IMG/VR virus record: IMGVR_UViG_3300032024_000072
Coordinates: 1 to 24,000 of that record
DNA from: a virus
Lineage: Duplodnaviria; Caudoviricetes
Direction: 5' to 3' (one strand)
DNA length: 24,000 bases
Below the pieces are notes generated by a model. It saw only the letters and a list, made by a program, of their open reading frames with translations, was not told the origin of the DNA and made no database searches. The translations under genes were made by a program, and so were the position numbers. This document shows positions 2,132-24,000 of this stretch, piece after piece (within the stretch, counting starts at the first letter, position 1; the number at the start of each line of letters is the position of its first letter).

Positions 2132-2788
2132 TTATAAAAACTCTTTAAACCAAGAATGAATGAAACCCTCTTTTCCACAAGGGAATTGACGAGGGTCGTA
2201 TAACCAAATTCCACCATCTTTTGCACTTAGTGCGATATTGATTTTCAATTGATAGCTATCACTTACCAACACCGGGCTAATTGCTGTAATGAAGTGAGGC
2301 CCTGCTGGCCAAATAACTAATGTCCCACGTTGAGGCACTAAGCTTAAGTCATATGCAGGAAACTCTAACTTCCCACCATATACCTCAAAGCGAGGGTCTA
2401 GAGGCACTTGGTCTTGATAGTCTTTTAGCCATACAGTAGCTGTTAAATCAATGTCTTTCGTTTTTACCCATTTACGTCTCACAAATTGAGCGCTTTCACA
2501 ACCAGGAGCTTGAGCTACAAGCTTCTCATTTTCGGGAAAATGAGAGATGGTTATTGGCTCAGTGCCTCGATATTCAGCATTATAGCGCTCTTCAATTAGC
2601 GGAATAAGAGGTCTAAGTTTTTCCAGAATGATAGCTTGCCCTTTATCAGGAGTGAGCTGCTTCTCTAACTTAGTAGGTCTTCCATCTTGGTCTAAATTAG
2701 GAGCTCTAACTTCATATTGAGAAATTAACTCTTCGCACATTTTACCTGACAGAAAGTCCTGCACAACAAAAAATGGTGATTTTACCAT
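2132..2788 (-). CDS. 2OG-Fe(II) oxygenase-fold protein (prolyl-4-hydroxylase-like), metal ligands apparently lost
   Basis: FFVVQDFLS..MCEELI, DLTATVWLKD, YGGKLEFP and PQRGTLVIWP match the fold; no HxD motif at the expected position. Confidence 0.7.
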   Translation of the reverse strand: MVKSPFFVVQDFLSGKMCEELISQYEVRAPNLDQDGRPTKLEKQLTPDKGQAIILEKLRPLIPLIEERYNAEYRGTEPITISHFPENEKLVAQAPGCESAQFVRRKWVKTKDIDLTATVWLKDYQDQVPLDPRFEVYGGKLEFPAYDLSLVPQRGTLVIWPAGPHFITAISPVLVSDSYQLKINIALSAKDGGIWLYDPRQFPCGKEGFIHSWFKEFL

Positions 2789-2829
2789 GGTATTCCTCTA
2801 GTATTATAAATTATTTTTAGCTTTATTGT

Positions 2830-4314
2830 TTATTCTTCTTCATTACCTGAAGAAGATACATCACTTATAGTTGCTAGCTCTTCAGTATTAGCATCAGTTG
2901 AAGTTAATCCTGCTGCAGGATTAACTAATACCCCAGCGGCTGCTAATGTTTGACGACCTAATAGGACTTCATATTCCATATGCTCTCTATCGGTTACTGT
3001 CATTTCAACATTACGAAGAGTGGTGCCATTCAATACCAAATCAACACGAATAACAGGTCTTTCAGCTGCTTCATCATTATCAGATTGTTTCACTTTCATC
3101 TGTTTCAACAAATGAAACTTGTAAGTGATGTCATTGAATTTGAATTTAATGATAGGACCATCTATCTGAATATCAGACCCATGCAATGAGCTAAGATGAG
3201 CGCCAGTATCAACGCGAGCTTCAATTGGCTCTTCATTGTTAAACATCTTAATGACAACATGCGTGATGGTGCCAATAATGGTATCTTCTGTATTGTGAGG
3301 GGCTATTTCAACTTCACTTTCAGAAGCTGGTGCTTCTGCTTCAGGAGCTGGTAATTCTACAATTGGCTCAATAGGTGCATCATCCTCAATAGCAACTCCT
3401 GAAGGCTCTACAGGAGTTGAAGGCACATCTTTTTGCTGTTGCCCAGCTAATTCAGAGCAATACTCAATAATCTTTTCTGCGATATCAATATTAGTGATAA
3501 CCTTCTGCATGGCTTCAAATCCTGGAGAGCCATTTACTTCAAGCATAATCACTTCACCATCTGAAAGAATGTAATCAACTGCTGCCAGATTGATATTCAG
3601 GATTTGCGCGGATTTGATAGCAGCATCTAGCTCAGCTTGGGATGGCTCATGGACTTTCAGCTCTGCACCCTGATGCGCATTAGAGCGGAAATCACCATCA
3701 GGAATTGACCTCATAACGGCTGCAAGTGGAATGCCATTCAAGATAAGCACTCGAGCTGATTCAGAATGCTCAATAAACTCTTGCACCATAAACTGCTCAC
3801 CTGATTTTACCAACTGCTGAATGATTGAGCGAGCTGAAGGAAGACTGTCTGCGCGGATTACTCCAACTCCATGTGTCCCTCTAATCGTTTTGATGATGAT
3901 AGGAAACTTACCACCAATAGCTTCAATAGCTTTTTCAGCTTGGTCCTCATTAGTAAAGACTGCTGAGCGTGGAGTTTTGATACCGGCATTGTTAAGCAAG
4001 ATTTGAGTTTCAACCTTATTGCTTGCAGCTCGTAATGATTGACCAGAGTTAAGAACCTTTACACCCATCTTTGCTAAATGGTCAATCATTGCAACTTTGT
4101 ATTCCAAATTGTCTTCTGATAAACGTGGAATACAGACATCCGCTCCAGTGAAACGAGTGCCATCATGCGCAATGAATGGGTCTTCAGTTAGAGAGATGTA
4201 AGCATTATCAGGGTCAATAACTTGGACATCAAAGCCAGCGGCTTTCGCTTTCTTCTCGAGCTCTTTAGGAGCCCAATTTTCTGGCTCGGTTGTTAGTAAG
4301 ATAAACGTGCTCAT
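2830..4314 (-). CDS. rimK: RimK-family ATP-grasp ligase fused to a C-terminal retropepsin-like (RimB-type) protease
   Basis: ATP-grasp motifs PIIIKTIRGTHGVGV, MVQEFI, DFRSNAHQG, AVD, LEVNGSPGF; an acidic Pro-rich linker; protease motifs ARVDTGAHLSSLH, RPVI, DREHMEYEVLLGR. Confidence 0.88.
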   Translation of the reverse strand: MSTFILLTTEPENWAPKELEKKAKAAGFDVQVIDPDNAYISLTEDPFIAHDGTRFTGADVCIPRLSEDNLEYKVAMIDHLAKMGVKVLNSGQSLRAASNKVETQILLNNAGIKTPRSAVFTNEDQAEKAIEAIGGKFPIIIKTIRGTHGVGVIRADSLPSARSIIQQLVKSGEQFMVQEFIEHSESARVLILNGIPLAAVMRSIPDGDFRSNAHQGAELKVHEPSQAELDAAIKSAQILNINLAAVDYILSDGEVIMLEVNGSPGFEAMQKVITNIDIAEKIIEYCSELAGQQQKDVPSTPVEPSGVAIEDDAPIEPIVELPAPEAEAPASESEVEIAPHNTEDTIIGTITHVVIKMFNNEEPIEARVDTGAHLSSLHGSDIQIDGPIIKFKFNDITYKFHLLKQMKVKQSDNDEAAERPVIRVDLVLNGTTLRNVEMTVTDREHMEYEVLLGRQTLAAAGVLVNPAAGLTSTDANTEELATISDVSSSGNEEE

Positions 4315-5508: not shown

Positions 5509-7398
5509 TTAAAATAGTGCTAAAAATGTCTCAACTGATTTTTTAGTGAATAGTATTCCGTCAGGATAGGTATCCAAATCATCTTGACAATATACTGCAT
5601 ATTCTCTACCATGGTCAATCGGTTTGAAATCATAATTGTCAGCGCCAGATTTTACAATTGTTTCAAATCCATTCTCAAGGGCTCTTGCCAATTGTTGAGT
5701 ATCATGATGACTCAATTGTATTTTGACATCCTCAACTGACAATTCACATTTATCATTCAATTTAGCAATATTCCAATCACCTAAATTTTCAGCTCTTGCG
5801 CGCCTGCGTATTGCATCTTCTCTGATAGTAAGCTCCTCATTCGCTTGTTGTTGCTCAGGGTTTGCTACTAAAAGTTTAGCCAATTGAATTAATCGAGTTT
5901 TTATCACTGCAACATTTACAGTTTTCTGTTTCTCACGTAATGACCTGATTAATGTGCTACGTTTGTAGTTTATATTTTCATCAGGCACACCCAATCTTGT
6001 CAATACAGCAGACACTAATTGGATATAAGCATCATTCCCAAGTTTAACATCTTCAGTAATTTCTTCTTCATTTTTCTTATGTGGCACTAACATATCATGG
6101 AAAGCATGGACATATTGGCGTAGCTTAGAATGCTGCAATATACGTTTAGCTGTATGACGCAAATGTTGTCTCAGAGCTGTTTTTCTTGTTTCTAATACCA
6201 TTGAAGGCACACCTAAATGCTTCAATAACTCAATCAGCATTTCGACTACAGATGAAATCTGTTTAGAATGCAAATCGGATTCTTTCAAATCTTCTTTATT
6301 ATGACCGCCAGCTAATTCTTTTTCTTTAGCAGCATGAGATGACATGTCAGTAGAAGCATCCAATTCATTCACAATTCTGTTTAGCAATTGGCGACCTTTA
6401 GATGTATGCATCAAAACTAATGATGCTTCTCTAACACCTCTTCTAAATGCTGTTTTCTGTTGAAGCAATCGTTGCACTGGGATATCCAAATGGATAATCA
6501 GCTTTACGATTTTGCGTTGAAGCGCAGTCCTGAAAATGTCTTCAAGTTTCAATTCAAGCTTGTGGTCTTTATCAGCTTCACCTAAGAAAGAAGAGAATGC
6601 CCAAAGTGGGTCATTATCGTCGAAAGCTTCTTTTACGTCTTTCTTTTTAGGGGCTGGTGCTTTCTTTTTAGCTTTTGGCTTTTTCGGTTTGCCATCTTCG
6701 TCTTCTTCTTCTTCACCAGCATCTTCAGTGTCGTCTCCTTCTTTATCGAAGTCTTTATCTTCTAAATCACTGTCAGGTTTTTCTTCATCACCCAAATCTA
6801 AGTTGTCTGCCTCGTCTTCGCTATCACCTTTTTCTTTATCATCTTCGCCATTTCCTTCGCCATTTCCTTCGCCCTTCTTCTTATTCAGTTTAAAGCTCAA
6901 TTTGATTTTAGATTCTTTAGGGGGCTCTTCATTTCCATCCAATTCACCGTCGCCCTCTTCAGCACCTTCTTCAGGTTGGCCTTGGTCATTAGCATTTGCT
7001 TGACGTTGCTCTGGCCATTCAACTGATACGATATCAAACTGTCCTGATAATTGGTCAATAGCTTCTTCAATGTCATCTTCTTTACCCAACATTTCGCTCA
7101 TAGCTTTCTCAAAAGCTTCTGCTTGGTCTGCAGCTACATAAACCTTGACTATCTCGCCATCATTTAACTCTAGACCAAATGCAACGGTATCAACTTCTTC
7201 AGAAGCGTCATGTGCTTGCTGAATAAGATTAGCTGCATCACGTTGAGACATTTCCTTCTTATCATCAAATGGAATGTTTCTAGCAAAAAAAACATGATTG
7301 ATAACTTTAGTTGGAGCAGCAGTTGTTGTAGATGCCTTAGCTGATGGGGTAGCAGCATCTTCTGCTAGTGCTGCTAATTCTTGTAGAAAGTTATTCAC
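5509..7398 (-). CDS. Large acidic protein, putative prohead core/internal head protein
   Basis: 629 aa; GTG start with GGAG SD; long D/E/K low-complexity tract; several hydrophobic-x-E sites (LAE, VKE, LGE, LKE, ITE, IRE) separating helical modules. Confidence 0.6.
   Translation of the reverse strand: MNNFLQELAALAEDAATPSAKASTTTAAPTKVINHVFFARNIPFDDKKEMSQRDAANLIQQAHDASEEVDTVAFGLELNDGEIVKVYVAADQAEAFEKAMSEMLGKEDDIEEAIDQLSGQFDIVSVEWPEQRQANANDQGQPEEGAEEGDGELDGNEEPPKESKIKLSFKLNKKKGEGNGEGNGEDDKEKGDSEDEADNLDLGDEEKPDSDLEDKDFDKEGDDTEDAGEEEEDEDGKPKKPKAKKKAPAPKKKDVKEAFDDNDPLWAFSSFLGEADKDHKLELKLEDIFRTALQRKIVKLIIHLDIPVQRLLQQKTAFRRGVREASLVLMHTSKGRQLLNRIVNELDASTDMSSHAAKEKELAGGHNKEDLKESDLHSKQISSVVEMLIELLKHLGVPSMVLETRKTALRQHLRHTAKRILQHSKLRQYVHAFHDMLVPHKKNEEEITEDVKLGNDAYIQLVSAVLTRLGVPDENINYKRSTLIRSLREKQKTVNVAVIKTRLIQLAKLLVANPEQQQANEELTIREDAIRRRARAENLGDWNIAKLNDKCELSVEDVKIQLSHHDTQQLARALENGFETIVKSGADNYDFKPIDHGREYAVYCQDDLDTYPDGILFTKKSVETFLALF
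6843..6873. repeat. 12-bp tandem repeat (2.6 copies) encoding GEGN repeats
   Basis: cttcgccatttc twice, then cttcgcc. Confidence 0.85.
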
Positions 7399-7401
7399 TT
7401 A

Positions 7402-10164
7402 TTATTCTCCGAATACAGATTTTAGATTAGCAGTAATAAACTCTTTAGACGAGCCATATTCTGATAATAGAAACTTTTCTAATTGGTCTTTAGGGCCAAC
7501 TAATTCAACTGATGGCCATTTACTAGAAGTATTTTCATCAATTAGTTTGCTAACAATACCATACTGTTTGCGCAGATATTTGAAACCGTCATCAGACGCA
7601 GGGTCTCCTGAATAATCAAGGTCTGTCCATTCTAGTGTAATTGAATGTAGCTCTTCAGTCATTTTAGCAAACATATTCTTAGCAACTGGCACTGACGGGA
7701 TAATGCGTTTAATAGTGCGTTTTTTCTTACCATTCTTACCTGTAAAGAGGCGTTGTGGATAAGTTGCGATATCACTGGAGCTTGTTGTAGTTGCTGCTAC
7801 TGGAGCTACATCGCCTTCATCTTCTTTTACTTCCTGTCTTGATTCTTCTGGATAACGAGCAAATTTGTTTTTACGATTAAAATCACGTTTCTTTCTAACG
7901 ATTGGTTTTCCATTCATAAACTTTAGAGCCTGAGTTGGTATGGTAGGTTTATTTTTATTGGCGGAATTTCCCTTATTTACTGAGGTTGAATTAGCAGATG
8001 AGGCATCCATCTGAGTGCCAAAATCAGCGAAGGTTGCGACATCACTAGAAGACAATGCATTGCCCATAGTTGTCAAACCCATTTCGCTTTCAGCCAAATT
8101 TGATAGATTTAGTAATAAGTTTTCATTCATATCAGCCACTGAGTGTTTGTCAAGATTGTTTTCTTTACTCGCTGCCATTAGCGTTGCATTAGCCAGAATA
8201 CGAATTCTGGAAAGTAAAGGTGATGACGGTGAATGTTGTTGAAGATAATAAAACACTTTAGCAATAATTGTATTCTTATCACTTAAAGAAATATCATCCC
8301 AATGTCTAATACCGACTATAGCCATATTTATGGCTTGTCCGCGAGTATCTAATCTAACGGCAATCAATTTAGCTGTTTCTTCTTGAAACTCCCAATCTTG
8401 AATCAAATTTGAGCTGGTTGATAAACTCTGATGGAGCTTTTTAACCCGTGGTGCAGTCAATCTTCCTGCCAGCTTTTTCAAGGTTGGAGCTACTTTAGGA
8501 GATAACAATCCTTTCATATCAGCCAAGAATGAATTGAATACCACATGCCCCCAAAAGTTAAGTGGGCTCATAGATTGACTATGAGTCTTCATTGACGCAT
8601 GAGCAGTATCACGAAGCATTGATGCAGCTTGTCTATCTTTAGCACGTATTAGCAGTTGAGCAGCAAGAAGAGTAGCAGTATATGCATGGCATATGTCTTC
8701 AGCCGTTAGACTTTTAAGAGTCTGCAGTGGAGGATTGCCAATGCTTTCTCCTAAGAAGCTTTCTTGAAGCTTTCTGCCATGAAGTTTGTAAATAATTGGT
8801 CCGTATAGTGCCAATACCAAATCTGTAAAATCTCGACTACGACCGACTTCTGAAATCTGGTCGTCTAAGTCAGATAACGTTTGAGCAAATACCAAAAGAT
8901 TCTGTTTGATAGATTCTGGAGTTTGAGCAACTTTGTCTCCATCGCCAGTAGTCAATTCGAAACTTGTTGCGGACTGTTTGAATTCGTCTCTCTTAATCAG
9001 TATCTGCTCTTTAGAATACGTTAGGATGGCTTGTATCTTGGTGCGCACTCCATTGAAGTTGAGTTGGTCTAACTGTTTAGCAAAGGCTGCGGCAGTGGCA
9101 CGTGGGTTAGCACCTCGTAATAGCTTGAAGACCTTAGTAGCTGATTGATACAGCGATAACTCAGGCACTCCAATAAAGTCTGCAATACGTTGTTGAGCAA
9201 TCCCCATTATACCACCTCTATCTTCTAATGAGGCGTGTTTGTCATTAGAGCGTTGAAAGCCAGAAATCTCTCGTTTAGCTATTGTATCAAATTTTGAGGT
9301 GGCTGTAAAATCATCTGACGCTATCCATACCGCATCAGAGCCTTTATGTAAAAGACCTGCACCTGTAGAAAAGTTGTCTTCTATTTGAGCAAGTAATTCT
9401 GATTTGATAGGCAGTTTGTATTTGACTGTGATTTGCTTGTTTATCTTCTCACGTGCAGCTTTAATGGCCTCTCGTTTTGGCATTGGTATTTTAGTCAAAT
9501 CTGCAGCTGCAACATCCATATTGGTGATTTCAAGACCCACCCGTCCTGCTGCTTCACTTGGCTGTGCTAAGAATGATTGGAGTTTCTTAATGATTGAGTT
9601 AAGTTTTGGTGTTGAAAGCATGTGACCAGTTTCGGCTTTGGCGTGTTTGATTTGCCATTTGACCAACTCTTCTCTCACTTCTAATGCTTCACCATCCTGG
9701 GTAACCAACAGTTTAACTCGAGCTTGGATATCTTTGCTACTTAGTTTTTCAGCTAAATTCAATGCTGCTTTCTTATCAGGAGCACCTATTTCTCCAACAA
9801 CTCCTCTTACCAAATAGATAACGTTTTTAGCAGAGTCCATTGCTTCTGGTGGCAATGAAACTATTTGAGCTTCAATTGCTTGTCCTGATTCAACAAACTC
9901 TTTGACTGTATTAGCAACTTTTAATAGAGCGGCATGAGCTGATTTGAAAGAATTGCTCTGTGCATCTTGAGGATAGTCAGATACCTTGTATGAAAACTTA
10001 GTCCTTTTTTCAGGAGAGAATGGGCTCGTATAGAAGTTGCCATCTGAATCGATGCCAATGAATAATGTCAGACCATCTGCTTGCGCCGTGATAGTATATT
10101 CACCAAGCTTTTTAAGTTGTTTCAGAAAATCCTTAATTGGGACATCTTCTAATTGTGTTGCCAT
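7402..10164 (-). CDS. Large multi-module protein, putative virion-internal; N-terminus resembles a ligase-type nucleotidyltransferase fold
   Basis: 920 aa; first gene after a late-promoter motif; N-terminal LED...TITAQADGLTLFIG.D..G.FYTS; internal LQE, LGE, MNE, LAE, VKE, MTE sites. Confidence 0.6.
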   Translation of the reverse strand: MATQLEDVPIKDFLKQLKKLGEYTITAQADGLTLFIGIDSDGNFYTSPFSPEKRTKFSYKVSDYPQDAQSNSFKSAHAALLKVANTVKEFVESGQAIEAQIVSLPPEAMDSAKNVIYLVRGVVGEIGAPDKKAALNLAEKLSSKDIQARVKLLVTQDGEALEVREELVKWQIKHAKAETGHMLSTPKLNSIIKKLQSFLAQPSEAAGRVGLEITNMDVAAADLTKIPMPKREAIKAAREKINKQITVKYKLPIKSELLAQIEDNFSTGAGLLHKGSDAVWIASDDFTATSKFDTIAKREISGFQRSNDKHASLEDRGGIMGIAQQRIADFIGVPELSLYQSATKVFKLLRGANPRATAAAFAKQLDQLNFNGVRTKIQAILTYSKEQILIKRDEFKQSATSFELTTGDGDKVAQTPESIKQNLLVFAQTLSDLDDQISEVGRSRDFTDLVLALYGPIIYKLHGRKLQESFLGESIGNPPLQTLKSLTAEDICHAYTATLLAAQLLIRAKDRQAASMLRDTAHASMKTHSQSMSPLNFWGHVVFNSFLADMKGLLSPKVAPTLKKLAGRLTAPRVKKLHQSLSTSSNLIQDWEFQEETAKLIAVRLDTRGQAINMAIVGIRHWDDISLSDKNTIIAKVFYYLQQHSPSSPLLSRIRILANATLMAASKENNLDKHSVADMNENLLLNLSNLAESEMGLTTMGNALSSSDVATFADFGTQMDASSANSTSVNKGNSANKNKPTIPTQALKFMNGKPIVRKKRDFNRKNKFARYPEESRQEVKEDEGDVAPVAATTTSSSDIATYPQRLFTGKNGKKKRTIKRIIPSVPVAKNMFAKMTEELHSITLEWTDLDYSGDPASDDGFKYLRKQYGIVSKLIDENTSSKWPSVELVGPKDQLEKFLLSEYGSSKEFITANLKSVFGE

Positions 10165-14022: not shown

Positions 14023-14814
14023 TTAAAGGTTGAGAATTGGCTCGGCCTTTTCACCATCAAACAAAACACCAACCTTGTTAAAGACTTTTGTTAGCTGAGG
14101 TATATCCAGCCTTTGGATTTCGGACCTTCTAACTGGGCCGTTAGGTCGATGGTTAGCCGGAATAGTTTCCATTTCTTCTTCAGTCAATTCTCTAAAGACT
14201 TTAACCTTCGTAAAGATTGAGCCACGTTTCAATCTCGGCTCAAGTTTATTCCAGTAAAATCCAGCTTCAGTTTCAAGTAGTGCAATCCTAGCAACTGTTG
14301 ACATGTTATCAATCTGAGATTGATGGAAGAGTGCATGAGCTGCCATATTGACACTATTCTTAGAAGCGTCCATTTCTCTCCACATCACATTCTCGGCTAC
14401 AGTTTTCAAGTCAGCCACTTGCCAAATACGGCAATCAAATGTTGGCACAACTTCAGTAACCCATTCACGTGAGAAGATTACTGAGGCATATGCAGACATT
14501 GAAGATGTCAACTTTTGGACACGGCCATCAAACATGTCAAGTAATTTCCAACCGAGAGTTATTTCATCTGATTGGACATATGCGAATGACGCATTAAACT
14601 CTTGAAGCAACGCTTTCGCCGTCTTTTCCATCGCCGTAATAAAACCGAGGTCATACGGCTTTTCACAAGTCCTCGTCAGAGTATGAAAGGCTCTACCGTC
14701 AAGACGCGCAATAACTGGCACTCCTGGAATAAGATTGCTTTCAGACATTCCTTCAAGTTTCTTATGTTTATCGCCAAGTGCATCAAAATCTAAACTTTGT
14801 TTTTCATTACTCAT
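14023..14814 (-). CDS. thg1: tRNA(His) guanylyltransferase Thg1-like protein (3'-5' RNA polymerase); start revised to ATG 14814
   Basis: ARLDGRAFHTLT, YVQSDEITL, FDGRVQKLTS, FDCR, WREMDASKNS; ATGA overlap with the upstream stop. Confidence 0.92.
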   Translation of the reverse strand: MSNEKQSLDFDALGDKHKKLEGMSESNLIPGVPVIARLDGRAFHTLTRTCEKPYDLGFITAMEKTAKALLQEFNASFAYVQSDEITLGWKLLDMFDGRVQKLTSSMSAYASVIFSREWVTEVVPTFDCRIWQVADLKTVAENVMWREMDASKNSVNMAAHALFHQSQIDNMSTVARIALLETEAGFYWNKLEPRLKRGSIFTKVKVFRELTEEEMETIPANHRPNGPVRRSEIQRLDIPQLTKVFNKVGVLFDGEKAEPILNL

Positions 14815-14990
14815 TTTCTTAATACTCCCCAAGATGAGCCTACTGGCTGAGTATCAAAACCATTCTTTCTTAATTGATTTGCAACCCATACAGCTATTTG
14901 CTCATTCGTTTTACCGACAAACCAAGCATTATTAGCCACAGTCATAGCAATCTGGAATGTTATATCAATCAGTTCCTGTTTTTTGCCCAT
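14811..14990 (-). CDS. Small hypothetical protein; probable start ATG 14990
   Basis: GGAG SD before MGKKQELIDITF; coupled to thg1. Confidence 0.7.
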   Translation of the reverse strand: MGKKQELIDITFQIAMTVANNAWFVGKTNEQIAVWVANQLRKNGFDTQPVGSSWGVLRK

Positions 14991-20581: not shown

Positions 20582-23209
20582 CTAAAATTTCAAAACTTTA
20601 CTAACATGAGCTAAAAACTGCGTAGGCACTTCATGACCCCAAGCTGAGAAAATACCCTCAAGTTTGTTATCAATCAGTTTTTCTTCAGTTAGTTTGAAAT
20701 CGATTTCAAAATGCTCTTCCATCCATTCAGGAAATTGAGATGATTCTGCTGGAATAGCAATTGTTTCAAATTCAAACTCATTCGGCTTCAAGTTATACAC
20801 TTTGACTTTATCGCCTGATGAAATGAATACTGCATCTAGTCCATCGAAATGCTCAGCTATTTTGTTATAATTGATAGCAGCACGACAATGACCTGGAATA
20901 GTTAGTTTGGACTTTCCGTTTGATGCTAACATTGGTTTACCGGCTAATTCAGCTTCATACGCTTCAGTAAACTTCTCAAGATTGTTTGTAGCTTTTGCTA
21001 TACCCATCAACAACTTATCTTCTGCATCTAAATGTGCATTGAATAAAGTCCTACGTTGTTGATTTATATATGTTGTCAATTCTTGATAATCTTTACCACC
21101 CAAAATCCTATCAACAACTTCTTTAAGAAACTTCTGAATGACTTTTGGCGTATCAGATTTCTTAATCTCGGAGCCCATAGCTTTCATTTTATTAACAGCA
21201 AAACCATCAAGGTCAATGACTTTCAGCATATACTTCTTGCGAGCTTGGAATAATCCACGCTCAGCTACAACTTCACGACCTGCTTTGATTAGACAATCAA
21301 ATTCAGGTTGGCAATTGAAAGCATCTTTCATAAACTGTTGAAAGCTTTCATTGATAATGTCAGCAACACCATCCGCTATCTCAATTGCTTCTTCCTTATT
21401 AGAAGCCATTGTCATAAAGTATGCAGAGTCAGTATCAGAATAGATTATCTCTGGGACAGGAGAGTGATATACGTTTTGGATTTCACCTTTAGGATTCACC
21501 TTATAGGATTTTTCCAATTCGATTTTCTTACCGGTCAATACTTCAGCAGCAACAGAGCACATATGAGAAGTGATAGCACGACCTGAATATGTGGTAGAAG
21601 CACCAATCAATTCCTCAACACCCCATCTAAAGCCTTTAGCTAATAGCGCGCCATAAGCTGAGTTTAATTGGATTTTCTTGGTCAACTGCAACAACTCATA
21701 ATGAGCTTCTTGTTTCTCAGCTTCATCATGTTTGCTATCTTTGCCATCAAGACTTTTCAAAATCTTAATCCACTTCTTCTTCTCGGCTTGCAACCTTTTT
21801 CTTTCTGAAAACCAGAATGATAGAGTTTGTGGCAGAATACCATGGCCTTGACTTTGGTCTAAGACTGTGCCATATGCCGAGATAGCCCAACGATTCTCAA
21901 TTAGCGTTTGTTTCCATTCAGCCCCTGACATTGTGATACCTTCATGGCTACCATATATCATAAGTGTATGAGGATAGTGGTCTTCATTAATCATGATACC
22001 ACGCCAATCTTCTTCATGCGACATGGCTTTTATGAAGTCATGTGCATCATTACCTTTCTTCGCTGACGCTTTTACAATGTCAATAATTTTCGGGTTTTGC
22101 ATCAACCTTTCAATAGTTTCATCAGTCTTGAATTGACCGATAACTTTTTCAGGTGAAAGATTCAATGACCTAATTACTGACGGATACAGAGAGTTGATAT
22201 CAACAGAGCCAATCCATTCATGAAGTCCAACATTAGGTGTCAATACAATCGCACCCTCAACTTTGCCATGACTCGATACTACGTCTTTGTCCTTAACCCT
22301 AACCCCTAAGTTATTGATTGCAAAGTTACTTATTCCAGAATCCACATATTTAGTGGTGCCAAGAATGGCTTCAAAAGTGACAGTATTTTCATGTGCCATC
22401 TGATTGACAAGTTGCACAAATCTAAACTTATCATCAAGAAGTTTAATCAAGACAACGTCAATGATGTTATAATGGACAAACTTTATGAAGTCTTCTAGAT
22501 AAAGTTTTTCCAATGTGCCATCATATTCTAACTTCTTAAATCCTAATTCTTCATGAGCGATCGCATCCAATCGAAATGACTCACGACCTTCAAAAGTAAA
22601 CTTCTTAAACATATCTTGATAGTCAAGATGTGCCCTACCTTGAAGTTGGATGACCAATTCTTCTTTGCCAAATCGAGTAACTGTCTTCTCACGAATCCAA
22701 CTAACACCTGGGAAATTAAGACGAGCTGTTTGTTTCTCACCTAATACTTCGTAAATACGTTTGTAGATATACGGTAAGTCATAAAACTCTGAATTCCATC
22801 CTGAAATAAAATCAACATCTTCTAATTCATCTAGAAACAGACCTAACAATTCTGACTCTGTATCAACCAAAATCAATCGACATTTTATCTCATTGAAACC
22901 ATACTGGCTAACATTTATTTCAAATGGCTTGAATGATTGCCCTTCAGGGATGACGGCAATACAGACATATTCATCTAACCATTGTTTGTAGACAGTGATA
23001 GCATTGATATATGCAAATGGATTTGATGGCCTAGAAAAACCGTAGTTTCGCTTTGCATATGAAGATTTATCGTATGAAACCCACTGTTTATTTTCAGGGT
23101 CTAAAACTTCAATTTTACTCCTACTCTCATTGGGAAGATTTCGCAATTCTCCTAATGTGATTTCTTCAATTTGGTTTGTATTGTTTGACAAATTCAACTT
23201 TTCTCCCAT
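20582..23209 (-). CDS. polB: Family B DNA polymerase, C-terminal fragment (ExoII/III plus polymerase domain)
   Basis: GWNSEFYDLPY (ExoII), YNIID (ExoIII), SVDINSLYPS (motif A), KIQLNSAYG (motif B), YSDTDS (motif C); AAGGA SD 10 nt before ATG 23209. Confidence 0.95.
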   Translation of the reverse strand: MGEKLNLSNNTNQIEEITLGELRNLPNESRSKIEVLDPENKQWVSYDKSSYAKRNYGFSRPSNPFAYINAITVYKQWLDEYVCIAVIPEGQSFKPFEINVSQYGFNEIKCRLILVDTESELLGLFLDELEDVDFISGWNSEFYDLPYIYKRIYEVLGEKQTARLNFPGVSWIREKTVTRFGKEELVIQLQGRAHLDYQDMFKKFTFEGRESFRLDAIAHEELGFKKLEYDGTLEKLYLEDFIKFVHYNIIDVVLIKLLDDKFRFVQLVNQMAHENTVTFEAILGTTKYVDSGISNFAINNLGVRVKDKDVVSSHGKVEGAIVLTPNVGLHEWIGSVDINSLYPSVIRSLNLSPEKVIGQFKTDETIERLMQNPKIIDIVKASAKKGNDAHDFIKAMSHEEDWRGIMINEDHYPHTLMIYGSHEGITMSGAEWKQTLIENRWAISAYGTVLDQSQGHGILPQTLSFWFSERKRLQAEKKKWIKILKSLDGKDSKHDEAEKQEAHYELLQLTKKIQLNSAYGALLAKGFRWGVEELIGASTTYSGRAITSHMCSVAAEVLTGKKIELEKSYKVNPKGEIQNVYHSPVPEIIYSDTDSAYFMTMASNKEEAIEIADGVADIINESFQQFMKDAFNCQPEFDCLIKAGREVVAERGLFQARKKYMLKVIDLDGFAVNKMKAMGSEIKKSDTPKVIQKFLKEVVDRILGGKDYQELTTYINQQRRTLFNAHLDAEDKLLMGIAKATNNLEKFTEAYEAELAGKPMLASNGKSKLTIPGHCRAAINYNKIAEHFDGLDAVFISSGDKVKVYNLKPNEFEFETIAIPAESSQFPEWMEEHFEIDFKLTEEKLIDNKLEGIFSAWGHEVPTQFLAHVSKVLKF

Positions 23210-23585
23210 TTATGAGTATTCCTTGATGTCGTTTAATTCTATATTTTATATCAGAATAGGTAAATGATGTTATTTTTTCGCAGTCTAATGAATTAAATTC
23301 TTCTAAGGTATCACAAAATCGCAAGGTTGAGCTTTTAGCAATCTTTATACTATGTGCGCGTTTTTCTTCATTATTGCCAAATGAGTTTTTCATTCGAAAT
23401 TTTAATTCATCTTGATTTAAAGTGCTAATAAAATGCTCTCTGAGAGTAAGTAATACCAAATTTTTGGCATCATCACTTCCGCCTAAACAAGATGGAATAA
23501 TATGATGTTTTTCTGAATAACCTTCAATATTATCCCGAGTTTTTGCATTCGAAATTAAAAGTTGATAGTGTTTATTATAATTCAA
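23166..23585 (-). mobile_element. Free-standing HNH homing endonuclease gene (MobE-type), possibly degenerate
   Basis: MNY.KHY..LI..AK.R...GYSEKHHIIPSCLGGSDD..NLV.LT.REHF; TTG start overlaps the upstream TGA. Confidence 0.88.
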
Positions 23586-23971
23586 AGCTTTAATCTAATT
23601 TTGACTTTCTCTTGTGAATCTCCAGCCATTGAAAATACGCGAGCCTCAATGTCGAAGAAAGCGTAATTCAGTTTTGGGATAGGTCTATTGTAATAGACAT
23701 CCATTAATACGCGTTGGAGTGGAGAGATGTCAGATTCAAACTTTTTCTTGAATCCGGCTTTTGCTATCTTAAACTCTTCCTTATCATCAAAAGAAAGTTT
23801 TTTAAGTGGGGTGCCATACATTGATTTGTATTCACCCTCAGAGTCCTCAATAAAGAAATAACGAGGTGGAGTGTATGAAACCGGATGGCGTCCTTGCTCA
23901 TCCCGCTCCCAAACTATGACCTTGTCGCTATCGTAAGAGTCAGCGATACCTACATAGTTTGCTTGTGTCAT
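23582..23971 (-). CDS. polB: Family B DNA polymerase, N-terminal fragment (N-domain plus ExoI)
   Basis: VIVWER, YFF, YKSMYG..LKK, FESDI and LNYAFFDIE (ExoI), then a 20-aa tail and TGA. Confidence 0.88.
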   Translation of the reverse strand: MTQANYVGIADSYDSDKVIVWERDEQGRHPVSYTPPRYFFIEDSEGEYKSMYGTPLKKLSFDDKEEFKIAKAGFKKKFESDISPLQRVLMDVYYNRPIPKLNYAFFDIEARVFSMAGDSQEKVKIRLKL

Positions 23972-24000
23972 AGATTATTGACCGTCCTTAGGCTCAAACA

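Follow-up and report, generated by a model that had tools for sequence, protein, structure and literature searches.

The elements closest to the one reported here are MobA, in the phage topoisomerase gene 39/60 (Manning and Atkins, 10.1101/2022.08.31.505936), and mobE, which splits the nrdA gene of Aeh1 and whose HNH insertion gave rise to tails on the two halves, for which the authors raise a degenerate-intein origin (Crona et al., PMC3045599). Related arrangements include fractured genes with split inteins (Dassa et al., PMC2677866), the split intein of the MIJ3 PolB (PMC6892783), and atypically split inteins such as VidaL and PolB16, whose N-terminal pieces of 16 and 15 amino acids (aa), respectively, are cut after strand beta-2 (PMC13014065). 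For I-TevI, the operator is a copy of the homing site situated beside the late promoter that serves the endonuclease gene (Edgell et al., review, PMC2988022), and split gp43 genes of Aeromonas phages are already known (PMC2677866, PMC2988022). Passages of a further paper (PMC7824862) contained nothing on the present element. Here we describe a split DNA polymerase gene (polB) in a stretch of 24,000 nucleotides from a Caudoviricetes virus (IMG/VR record IMGVR_UViG_3300032024_000072, positions 1 to 24,000), referred to as the window.

The insert in this gene is one case of a recurring mobile cassette, which consists of a C-terminal tail on the first polymerase fragment, an HNH endonuclease gene, and an N-terminal head on the second fragment. 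This cassette splits polB, and we consider it probable that it spreads by homing and that tail and head, which are predicted to form one domain, rejoin the two chains non-covalently and without splicing.

A polB gene split behind the ExoI motif

The polB gene lies on the minus strand and is interrupted, giving PolB-N (129 aa), an HNH open reading frame (ORF, 139 aa), and PolB-C (875 aa; Table 1). The C-terminus of PolB-N reads DIE-ARVF-SMAGDSQEKVKIRLKL*, with the break four residues past the ExoI DIE motif. Its stop shares an overlap of 4 nucleotides (nt) with the TTG start of the HNH gene, the 3' end of which overlaps the ATG of PolB-C by 44 nt, and in PolB-C a head of 53-56 aa precedes GFSRP. 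The window therefore holds 16 extra residues in PolB-N and 53 in PolB-C; the sum of 69 agrees with the ~70 residues that a first-pass annotation of this DNA had counted beyond the short loop expected between DIE and GFS. Of 83 related loci, 80 have an unbroken ExoI loop, with 6-9 residues from DIE to the next G, and the remaining three end ahead of the loop; the nearest relatives have seven residues (DIE-SEVIKGA-GFS). The extra segment is thus not a normal loop of intact homologues, although the annotation had allowed that it might be.

PolB-N carries the ExoI acidic pair (D107 and E109), and the catalytic motifs of PolB-C are intact at residues 137, 247, 337, 511 and 590. Since ExoI lies on PolB-N, and ExoII, ExoIII and the polymerase motifs on PolB-C, the proofreading site is divided over two chains. 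One Logan contig in each of two runs bridges positions 22521-23845 with zero differences; as both runs may be the source data, independent support for the split comes from its recurrence in other phages.

Recurrence and spread of the cassette

Two ENA proteins that are 65% and 58% identical to PolB-N terminate in a tail of equal length. Searches with a pattern that combined DIE with the V-K-I-R strand found the order PolB-N, HNH and PolB-C in all ten IMG/VR matches (eight distinct), in two of 16 JGI matches (one being the same locus as L206), and in one of 22 genome-collection matches; the other JGI and genome-collection matches were unrelated. The tail, HNH and head arrangement is present in ten metagenomic phage loci besides the window. 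Furthermore, a profile built from 11 heads gave 71 matches among 4849 candidates, every one a PolB, a count that includes the window's own head and the training members. The module was found elsewhere both split and contiguous, as the first-pass annotation had proposed to check: 63 of these proteins start at the head and eight hold tail and head in one chain. In the contiguous forms, 64-67 residues lie between DIE and the next landmark (seven measured), and one of them reads KIRK-TMEILEK, retaining the start found in split relatives, which suggests re-fusion following loss of the HNH gene. The V-K-I-R motif is conserved in the tail, and ITV.EL, YEVWD and WV in the head. Comparison of these sequences indicates that the inserted segment is a conserved module rather than a normal polymerase loop.

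The window head, compared with 5.8 billion proteins, matched itself alone among nine candidates, searches of Pfam, NCBIfam, PHROGs, PDB sequences and the ESM Atlas yielded nothing useful for head or module, and the cultured phages of the GenBank set gave no match to the module (three queries, best expectation value (E) 3). Matches of the module and head to Kelch proteins cover one hairpin only and were set aside.

Split and intact alleles exist side by side. For the split locus L209, the 80 best relatives listed are 78-92% identical and all intact, while the intact L297 and the split P0056 share 99.7% identity over 776 aa. A quick IQ-TREE phylogeny of 74 PolB bodies, built with the module left out and with L008 and P0045 skipped, requires 13 changes between split and intact states, at least seven of them forced by starred branches, and places the window with the intact L005 and L011. 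An approximately unbiased (AU) test on 34 of the 74 rows rejected a single clade of carriers (p-AU 5e-49). The carriers are scattered over the PolB tree, a pattern expected from homing. Gains and losses cannot be distinguished on this tree; the near-identical pairs of split and intact alleles favour recent homing, and homing is the likely means by which the cassette has spread.

Many module-bearing PolBs are broken again (P0006, P0010, P0051, P0072, P0074, L208 and L209), giving polymerases in three pieces; the second break is made by a Ser-1 split intein in the YGD/DTD motif, or the ORF stops near residue 460-490. At one cassette locus, a group I intron match (Rfam RF00028, L210:1-186) lies just past the end of the PolB-C ORF. 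A classic fractured gene, with a MobE-like HNH gene between the halves of a split intein, was seen in L120 (~2161-3400).

Fold and origin of the inserted domain

The contiguous 59-aa module of a relative, P0073, was folded by AlphaFold2 with a predicted local distance difference test (pLDDT) of 84.7. The model has strands at residues 9-14 and 20-23, a helix at 24-28, and strands at 36-40 and 45-48; the natural break position falls in the turn after the first strand, and the tail forms a core strand.

The most likely origin of this module, at odds that we judge to be about even, is the N-terminal stretch (~55 residues) of a Hint (intein) domain divided at the S1 site. In the VIA structure comparison against 48,161 chains, 16 of the top 50 rows are Hint domains (Z 2.2-4.3), of which 11 start at intein residue -2 to 2; examples are NrdJ-1 (Z 3.8) and VidaL (Z 3.3, root mean square deviation (rmsd) 2.6, 54 residues aligned). 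The break after the first strand, at residue 15-17, lies at the position of the intein S1 site. As a control, a fragment comprising residues 1-58 of a genuine phage intein was folded and gave the same order of elements as the module (strand-strand-helix-strand-strand). At the sequence level, a hidden Markov model (HMM) of the module ranks 18 intein N-termini over their own reversals (p 0.002); of these 18, six exceed the 95th percentile set by 608 scored controls, and the top two (7.7 and 7.2 bits) beat all of these controls. The tail columns of the model rest on contiguous rows, because the N-fragment rows were misplaced in the alignment (A6). The hhalign score against the 18 phage inteins exceeds 200 of 200 shuffles. 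The fuller proposal is made tentatively, as the less probable outcome: a split intein that lacks its catalytic two-thirds may have been domesticated as a 58-residue non-splicing clasp, together with the HNH gene, homing into the PolB proofreading site across distant phage clades.

Several results weigh against an intein origin. The folded model is that of a contiguous relative and not of the window's own halves. No VIA match reached a Z of 5 or more, and 11 rows of the top 50 are BRK/GYF domains (Z 2.4-4.1), tied with the Hint rows; two of these, from U5-52K, we take to be GYF. The control intein fragment was recognised far more clearly, with Hint domains in its top 14 rows (best Z 7.0, rmsd 1.6) and no BRK/GYF row above Z 3.0, although the inclusion of inteins in AlphaFold training favours this fragment. 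Foldseek gave no match at E<=0.001, the head profile found no intein in PDB sequences at E<=10 and matched no Hint family in Pfam, and the hhalign alignment with the phage inteins has a probability of 2% over seven columns.

The residues needed for splicing are likewise missing from the family. Position 1 of an intein (the Cys, Ser or Ala of block A) is not conserved across the tails: the first residue is S in three proteins of the window clade, P or A in nine further split loci, and either P or T where the module is contiguous. The block A motif read by the first-pass annotation (S-x-A-G-D-S) thus loses its value as intein evidence; AGDS is confined to the window and aligns at the DNA level with the native AGFS of the intact L005. 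Block B (TxxH) occurs in none of the 71 proteins within the first 55 residues, and in place of a terminal (H)N followed by C, S or T the module ends in LE, KG, YD and similar, so that the absence of both from the window head, which the annotation had noted, extends to the family. The pattern of an intact intein (C/S/T-x-x-G-D) at this site gave two IMG/VR matches, both unrelated to PolB, and a stricter tail pattern gave none. The module has no conserved splicing residues and is not an intein. Of the splicing-dead intein relic proposed earlier, the loss of splicing is therefore borne out, and the Hint origin is at best suggestive, given Z scores of 3-4, the tie with BRK/GYF and a weak sequence signal.

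A real possibility, though short of an even one, is that the same mobile cassette and clasp contain a domain of other descent, either BRK/GYF-like or another captured small beta-beta-alpha-beta-beta domain, in which case the likeness to Hint would reflect a shared simple fold. The level BRK/GYF rows, the much closer fit of the true intein fragment, and the lack of a conserved Cys/Ser1, TxxH or HN all agree with this explanation. No BRK/GYF match for the module was found in Pfam, and the structural register with intein residue 1, the break at the S1 position, the HMM preference for intein N-termini over reversals and controls, and the occurrence of true inteins in the same polB genes argue for intein descent instead.

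A probable clasp between the two polymerase chains

The cassette would supply a stop, a promoter and a new start, and two chains would therefore be made. In the probable sequence of events, the HNH protein would cut intact polB near the ExoI codons and repair would copy the cassette in; PolB-N and PolB-C would then be translated separately from one operon, and the basic tail would provide the strand that completes the acidic head's sheet, thereby holding the ExoI chain on the rest of the proofreading site. Later the HNH gene may decay, as in the window, or be lost with re-fusion, while the domain would persist.

On the predicted fold, a clasp of tail and head is likely. The pairing of a basic tail with an acidic head, another early observation, was upheld: net charges are +2 and -2 in the window, and in the family tails are positive in nine of nine and heads negative in 63 of 63. 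Purifying selection acts on the module. In six pairs from one clade, nonsynonymous divergence (pN) was 0.12-0.16 for the module, 0.11-0.15 for the polymerase body and 0.18-0.38 for the HNH gene. Two points count against the clasp. In a second clade (three pairs) constraint is somewhat weaker on the module than on the body (pN 0.17-0.26 vs 0.11-0.17), and a clasp role does not follow from conservation, since the Aeh1 tails were unneeded for binding of the halves (PMC3045599).

It is conceivable, if unlikely, that the module is not needed for joining and that the halves assemble via the polymerase body, the module serving to break the endonuclease target, to supply start signals or to bind another partner. 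Deletion of the Aeh1 tails left the heterodimer intact (PMC3045599), the insert disrupts the DIEVDFDPER target region, and the start codon of PolB-C comes from the head. Set against this are the protein-level constraint, which matches that of the polymerase body in one clade, the opposite charges kept in all cases counted, and the place of the tail as a core strand of the predicted fold.

We regard it as very improbable that the window allele is a non-functional pseudogene or results from misassembly. Its HNH gene is deleted in part, its spacer is gone, and it is known from one 24-kb record with two bridging runs that may both be the source; yet both polymerase ORFs are open with catalytic motifs intact, tail and head retain the family residues, and two relatives, 58-65% identical, stop at the same tail.

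Joining of PolB-N and PolB-C by protein trans-splicing, RNA splicing or ribosome bypass is hardly credible, since, although contiguous forms exist, the genes overlap and MobA elements bear a bypass, the HN end and the +1 nucleophile are missing (S in one of 71 and C or T in none, with the boundary uncertain by 1-3 residues), no Rfam intron was matched in window positions 22500-24000 and no group I intron over the cassette in four relatives (the one in L210 lies elsewhere), all 71 matches start with M or V, and the spacers hold signals resembling promoters and Shine-Dalgarno (SD) sequences.

The endonuclease gene and its putative target

The HNH protein of the window matches general MobE-like proteins over residues 1-54 only; counterparts of its C-terminal part are found in the cassette HNHs and in one GIY-YIG gene. 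The latter (L024:1950-2660) sits directly upstream of an intact polB and has the C-terminal domain common to the cassette HNHs, from which this part likely binds polB DNA; the GIY-YIG gene may represent a swap of nuclease domains on the putative polB-binding domain. Compared with relatives of 242-329 aa, the window HNH lacks ~100 residues directly after REHFI, including the next conserved His, and is therefore likely inactive.

In all nine relatives examined, a copy of the ExoI codons, followed by TAAATA, lies in a spacer of 48-55 nt preceding the HNH gene; the copy retains 15-20 of 24 bases (shuffle P 0.021 or less). The spacer is absent in the window. By analogy with the I-TevI layout this copy is a possible operator for autorepression of the HNH gene, and a leftover target duplication would also explain it. 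In four loci, comparison of the copy with the intact allele and with its own gene gave no clear DNA difference in closeness, and an excess of promoters near the cassette was not found.

Table 1. Coordinates of the split polB gene, the cassette and the spacer copies (window positions unless a locus is named).
Feature	Position	Strand	Basis or remark
PolB-N, N-terminal domain and ExoI strand, 129 aa	23582..23971	-	ORF; PHROG 262 DNA polymerase E 2.9e-9; residues 1-110 match RsoM2USA PolB
ExoI DIE codons, D107-E109	23645..23653	-	likely part of the endonuclease target; putative role suggested by spacer copies in 9/9 relatives
Tail of 16 aa, basic, forming the first module half and holding the conserved V-K-I-R strand	23585..23632	-	strand E9-14 in the model of a contiguous relative
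MobE-like HNH endonuclease gene, ~100 codons deleted near 23426	23166..23585	-	PHROG 655 homing endonuclease E 1.4e-23, residues 1-53; alignment to cassette HNHs of 242-329 aa
Head of PolB-C, acidic, forming the second module half; core conserved at 23051-23173	23051..23209	-	family alignment and head profile
PolB-C: ExoII, ExoIII and whole polymerase domain, 875 aa	20582..23209	-	Pfam DNA_pol_B E 3.5e-24, exo1 E 2e-10
ExoI-codon copies (F-x-D-I-E-V) beside TAAATA	L203 2621-2668; L206 4079-4129; seven other cassette loci; L337		

Neighbouring genes

The 24 kb of the window form one virus record, which includes T4-like replication genes (DnaB helicase, a Toprim protein and a 5'-3' exonuclease), and the best cultured relative of its PolB is that of the jumbo phage RsoM2USA (42%). 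It also encodes a phage Thg1 tRNA-His guanylyltransferase (14023-14832) and a RimK-type ATP-grasp ligase fused to a putative protease domain (2830-4314). Long ORFs at 7402-10164 (920 aa) and 5509-7398 (629 aa) have no convincing Pfam or PHROG family.

Comparison with known systems

The cassette shares with gene-splitting HNH elements of the MobA/MobE type an HNH gene within a split essential gene, extensions conserved on both halves and retained past decay or loss of the nuclease, and near-identical alleles without the element in a patchy phylogeny. With polB, a third essential gene joins the few that are known to be split by HNH elements without splicing. The idea of an undescribed route to gene fission, raised at the outset, does not hold, as tails added by HNH elements have been published for MobE in nrdA (PMC3045599) and MobA in topoisomerase (10.1101/2022.08.31.505936). 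A literature search, with subscription journals mostly outside its coverage, found no element at PolB ExoI and no non-splicing half-Hint clasp.

The split, decayed, contiguous and absent states are all represented, in some cases by near-identical genes, so the added tails can be studied as a family and the proposal of split-intein descent for such tails becomes testable. If the domesticated-intein origin is true, it would give the proposal of a degenerate-intein origin for tails of this kind its first concrete example, and the cassette would be an intein-like selfish element that is never removed from its host protein. A self-assembling pair of 16 aa and 42 aa could serve as a compact protein tag. 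For annotation, such polB genes appear broken yet are likely functional.

Like MobA, the present element is an HNH element inserting repeatedly at one site, dividing a metal-binding site over two ORFs, with conserved C- and N-terminal extensions, decay or excision with re-fusion, and swapped nuclease domains (GIY-YIG, and Vsr in MobA). It differs in its target, the PolB ExoI motif, in its tail of 16 aa vs ~44 in MobA, in that no bypass cassette was seen here, and in that tail and head are predicted to form one domain. As in Aeh1, a MobE-type HNH gene lies between the gene halves, with a basic C-tail, an acidic N-tail and no splicing. The Aeh1 tails, as described, have no database matches and aid tetramer assembly, whereas the tails here belong to a family with contiguous forms and a predicted fold.

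Similarly to fractured genes, the polB halves flank a free-standing endonuclease gene whose 3' end overlaps the downstream start; those genes are reported to retain intein blocks A, B, F and G and to splice, whereas the module is without B, F and G. With VidaL and PolB16 it shares an N-piece of 15-16 aa, a cut after strand beta-2 and a structure in register, and it differs in being ~58 aa overall with every catalytic residue missing. As with the I-TevI operator, a copy of the putative target is placed ahead of the endonuclease gene in the cassette relatives. Here, unlike I-TevI, the HNH gene is free-standing, the operator is a putative one, and the window has lost its spacer. What is new, compared with these systems, is the PolB ExoI target, tails that form one predicted domain, and the placing of a target-codon copy ahead of the HNH promoter.

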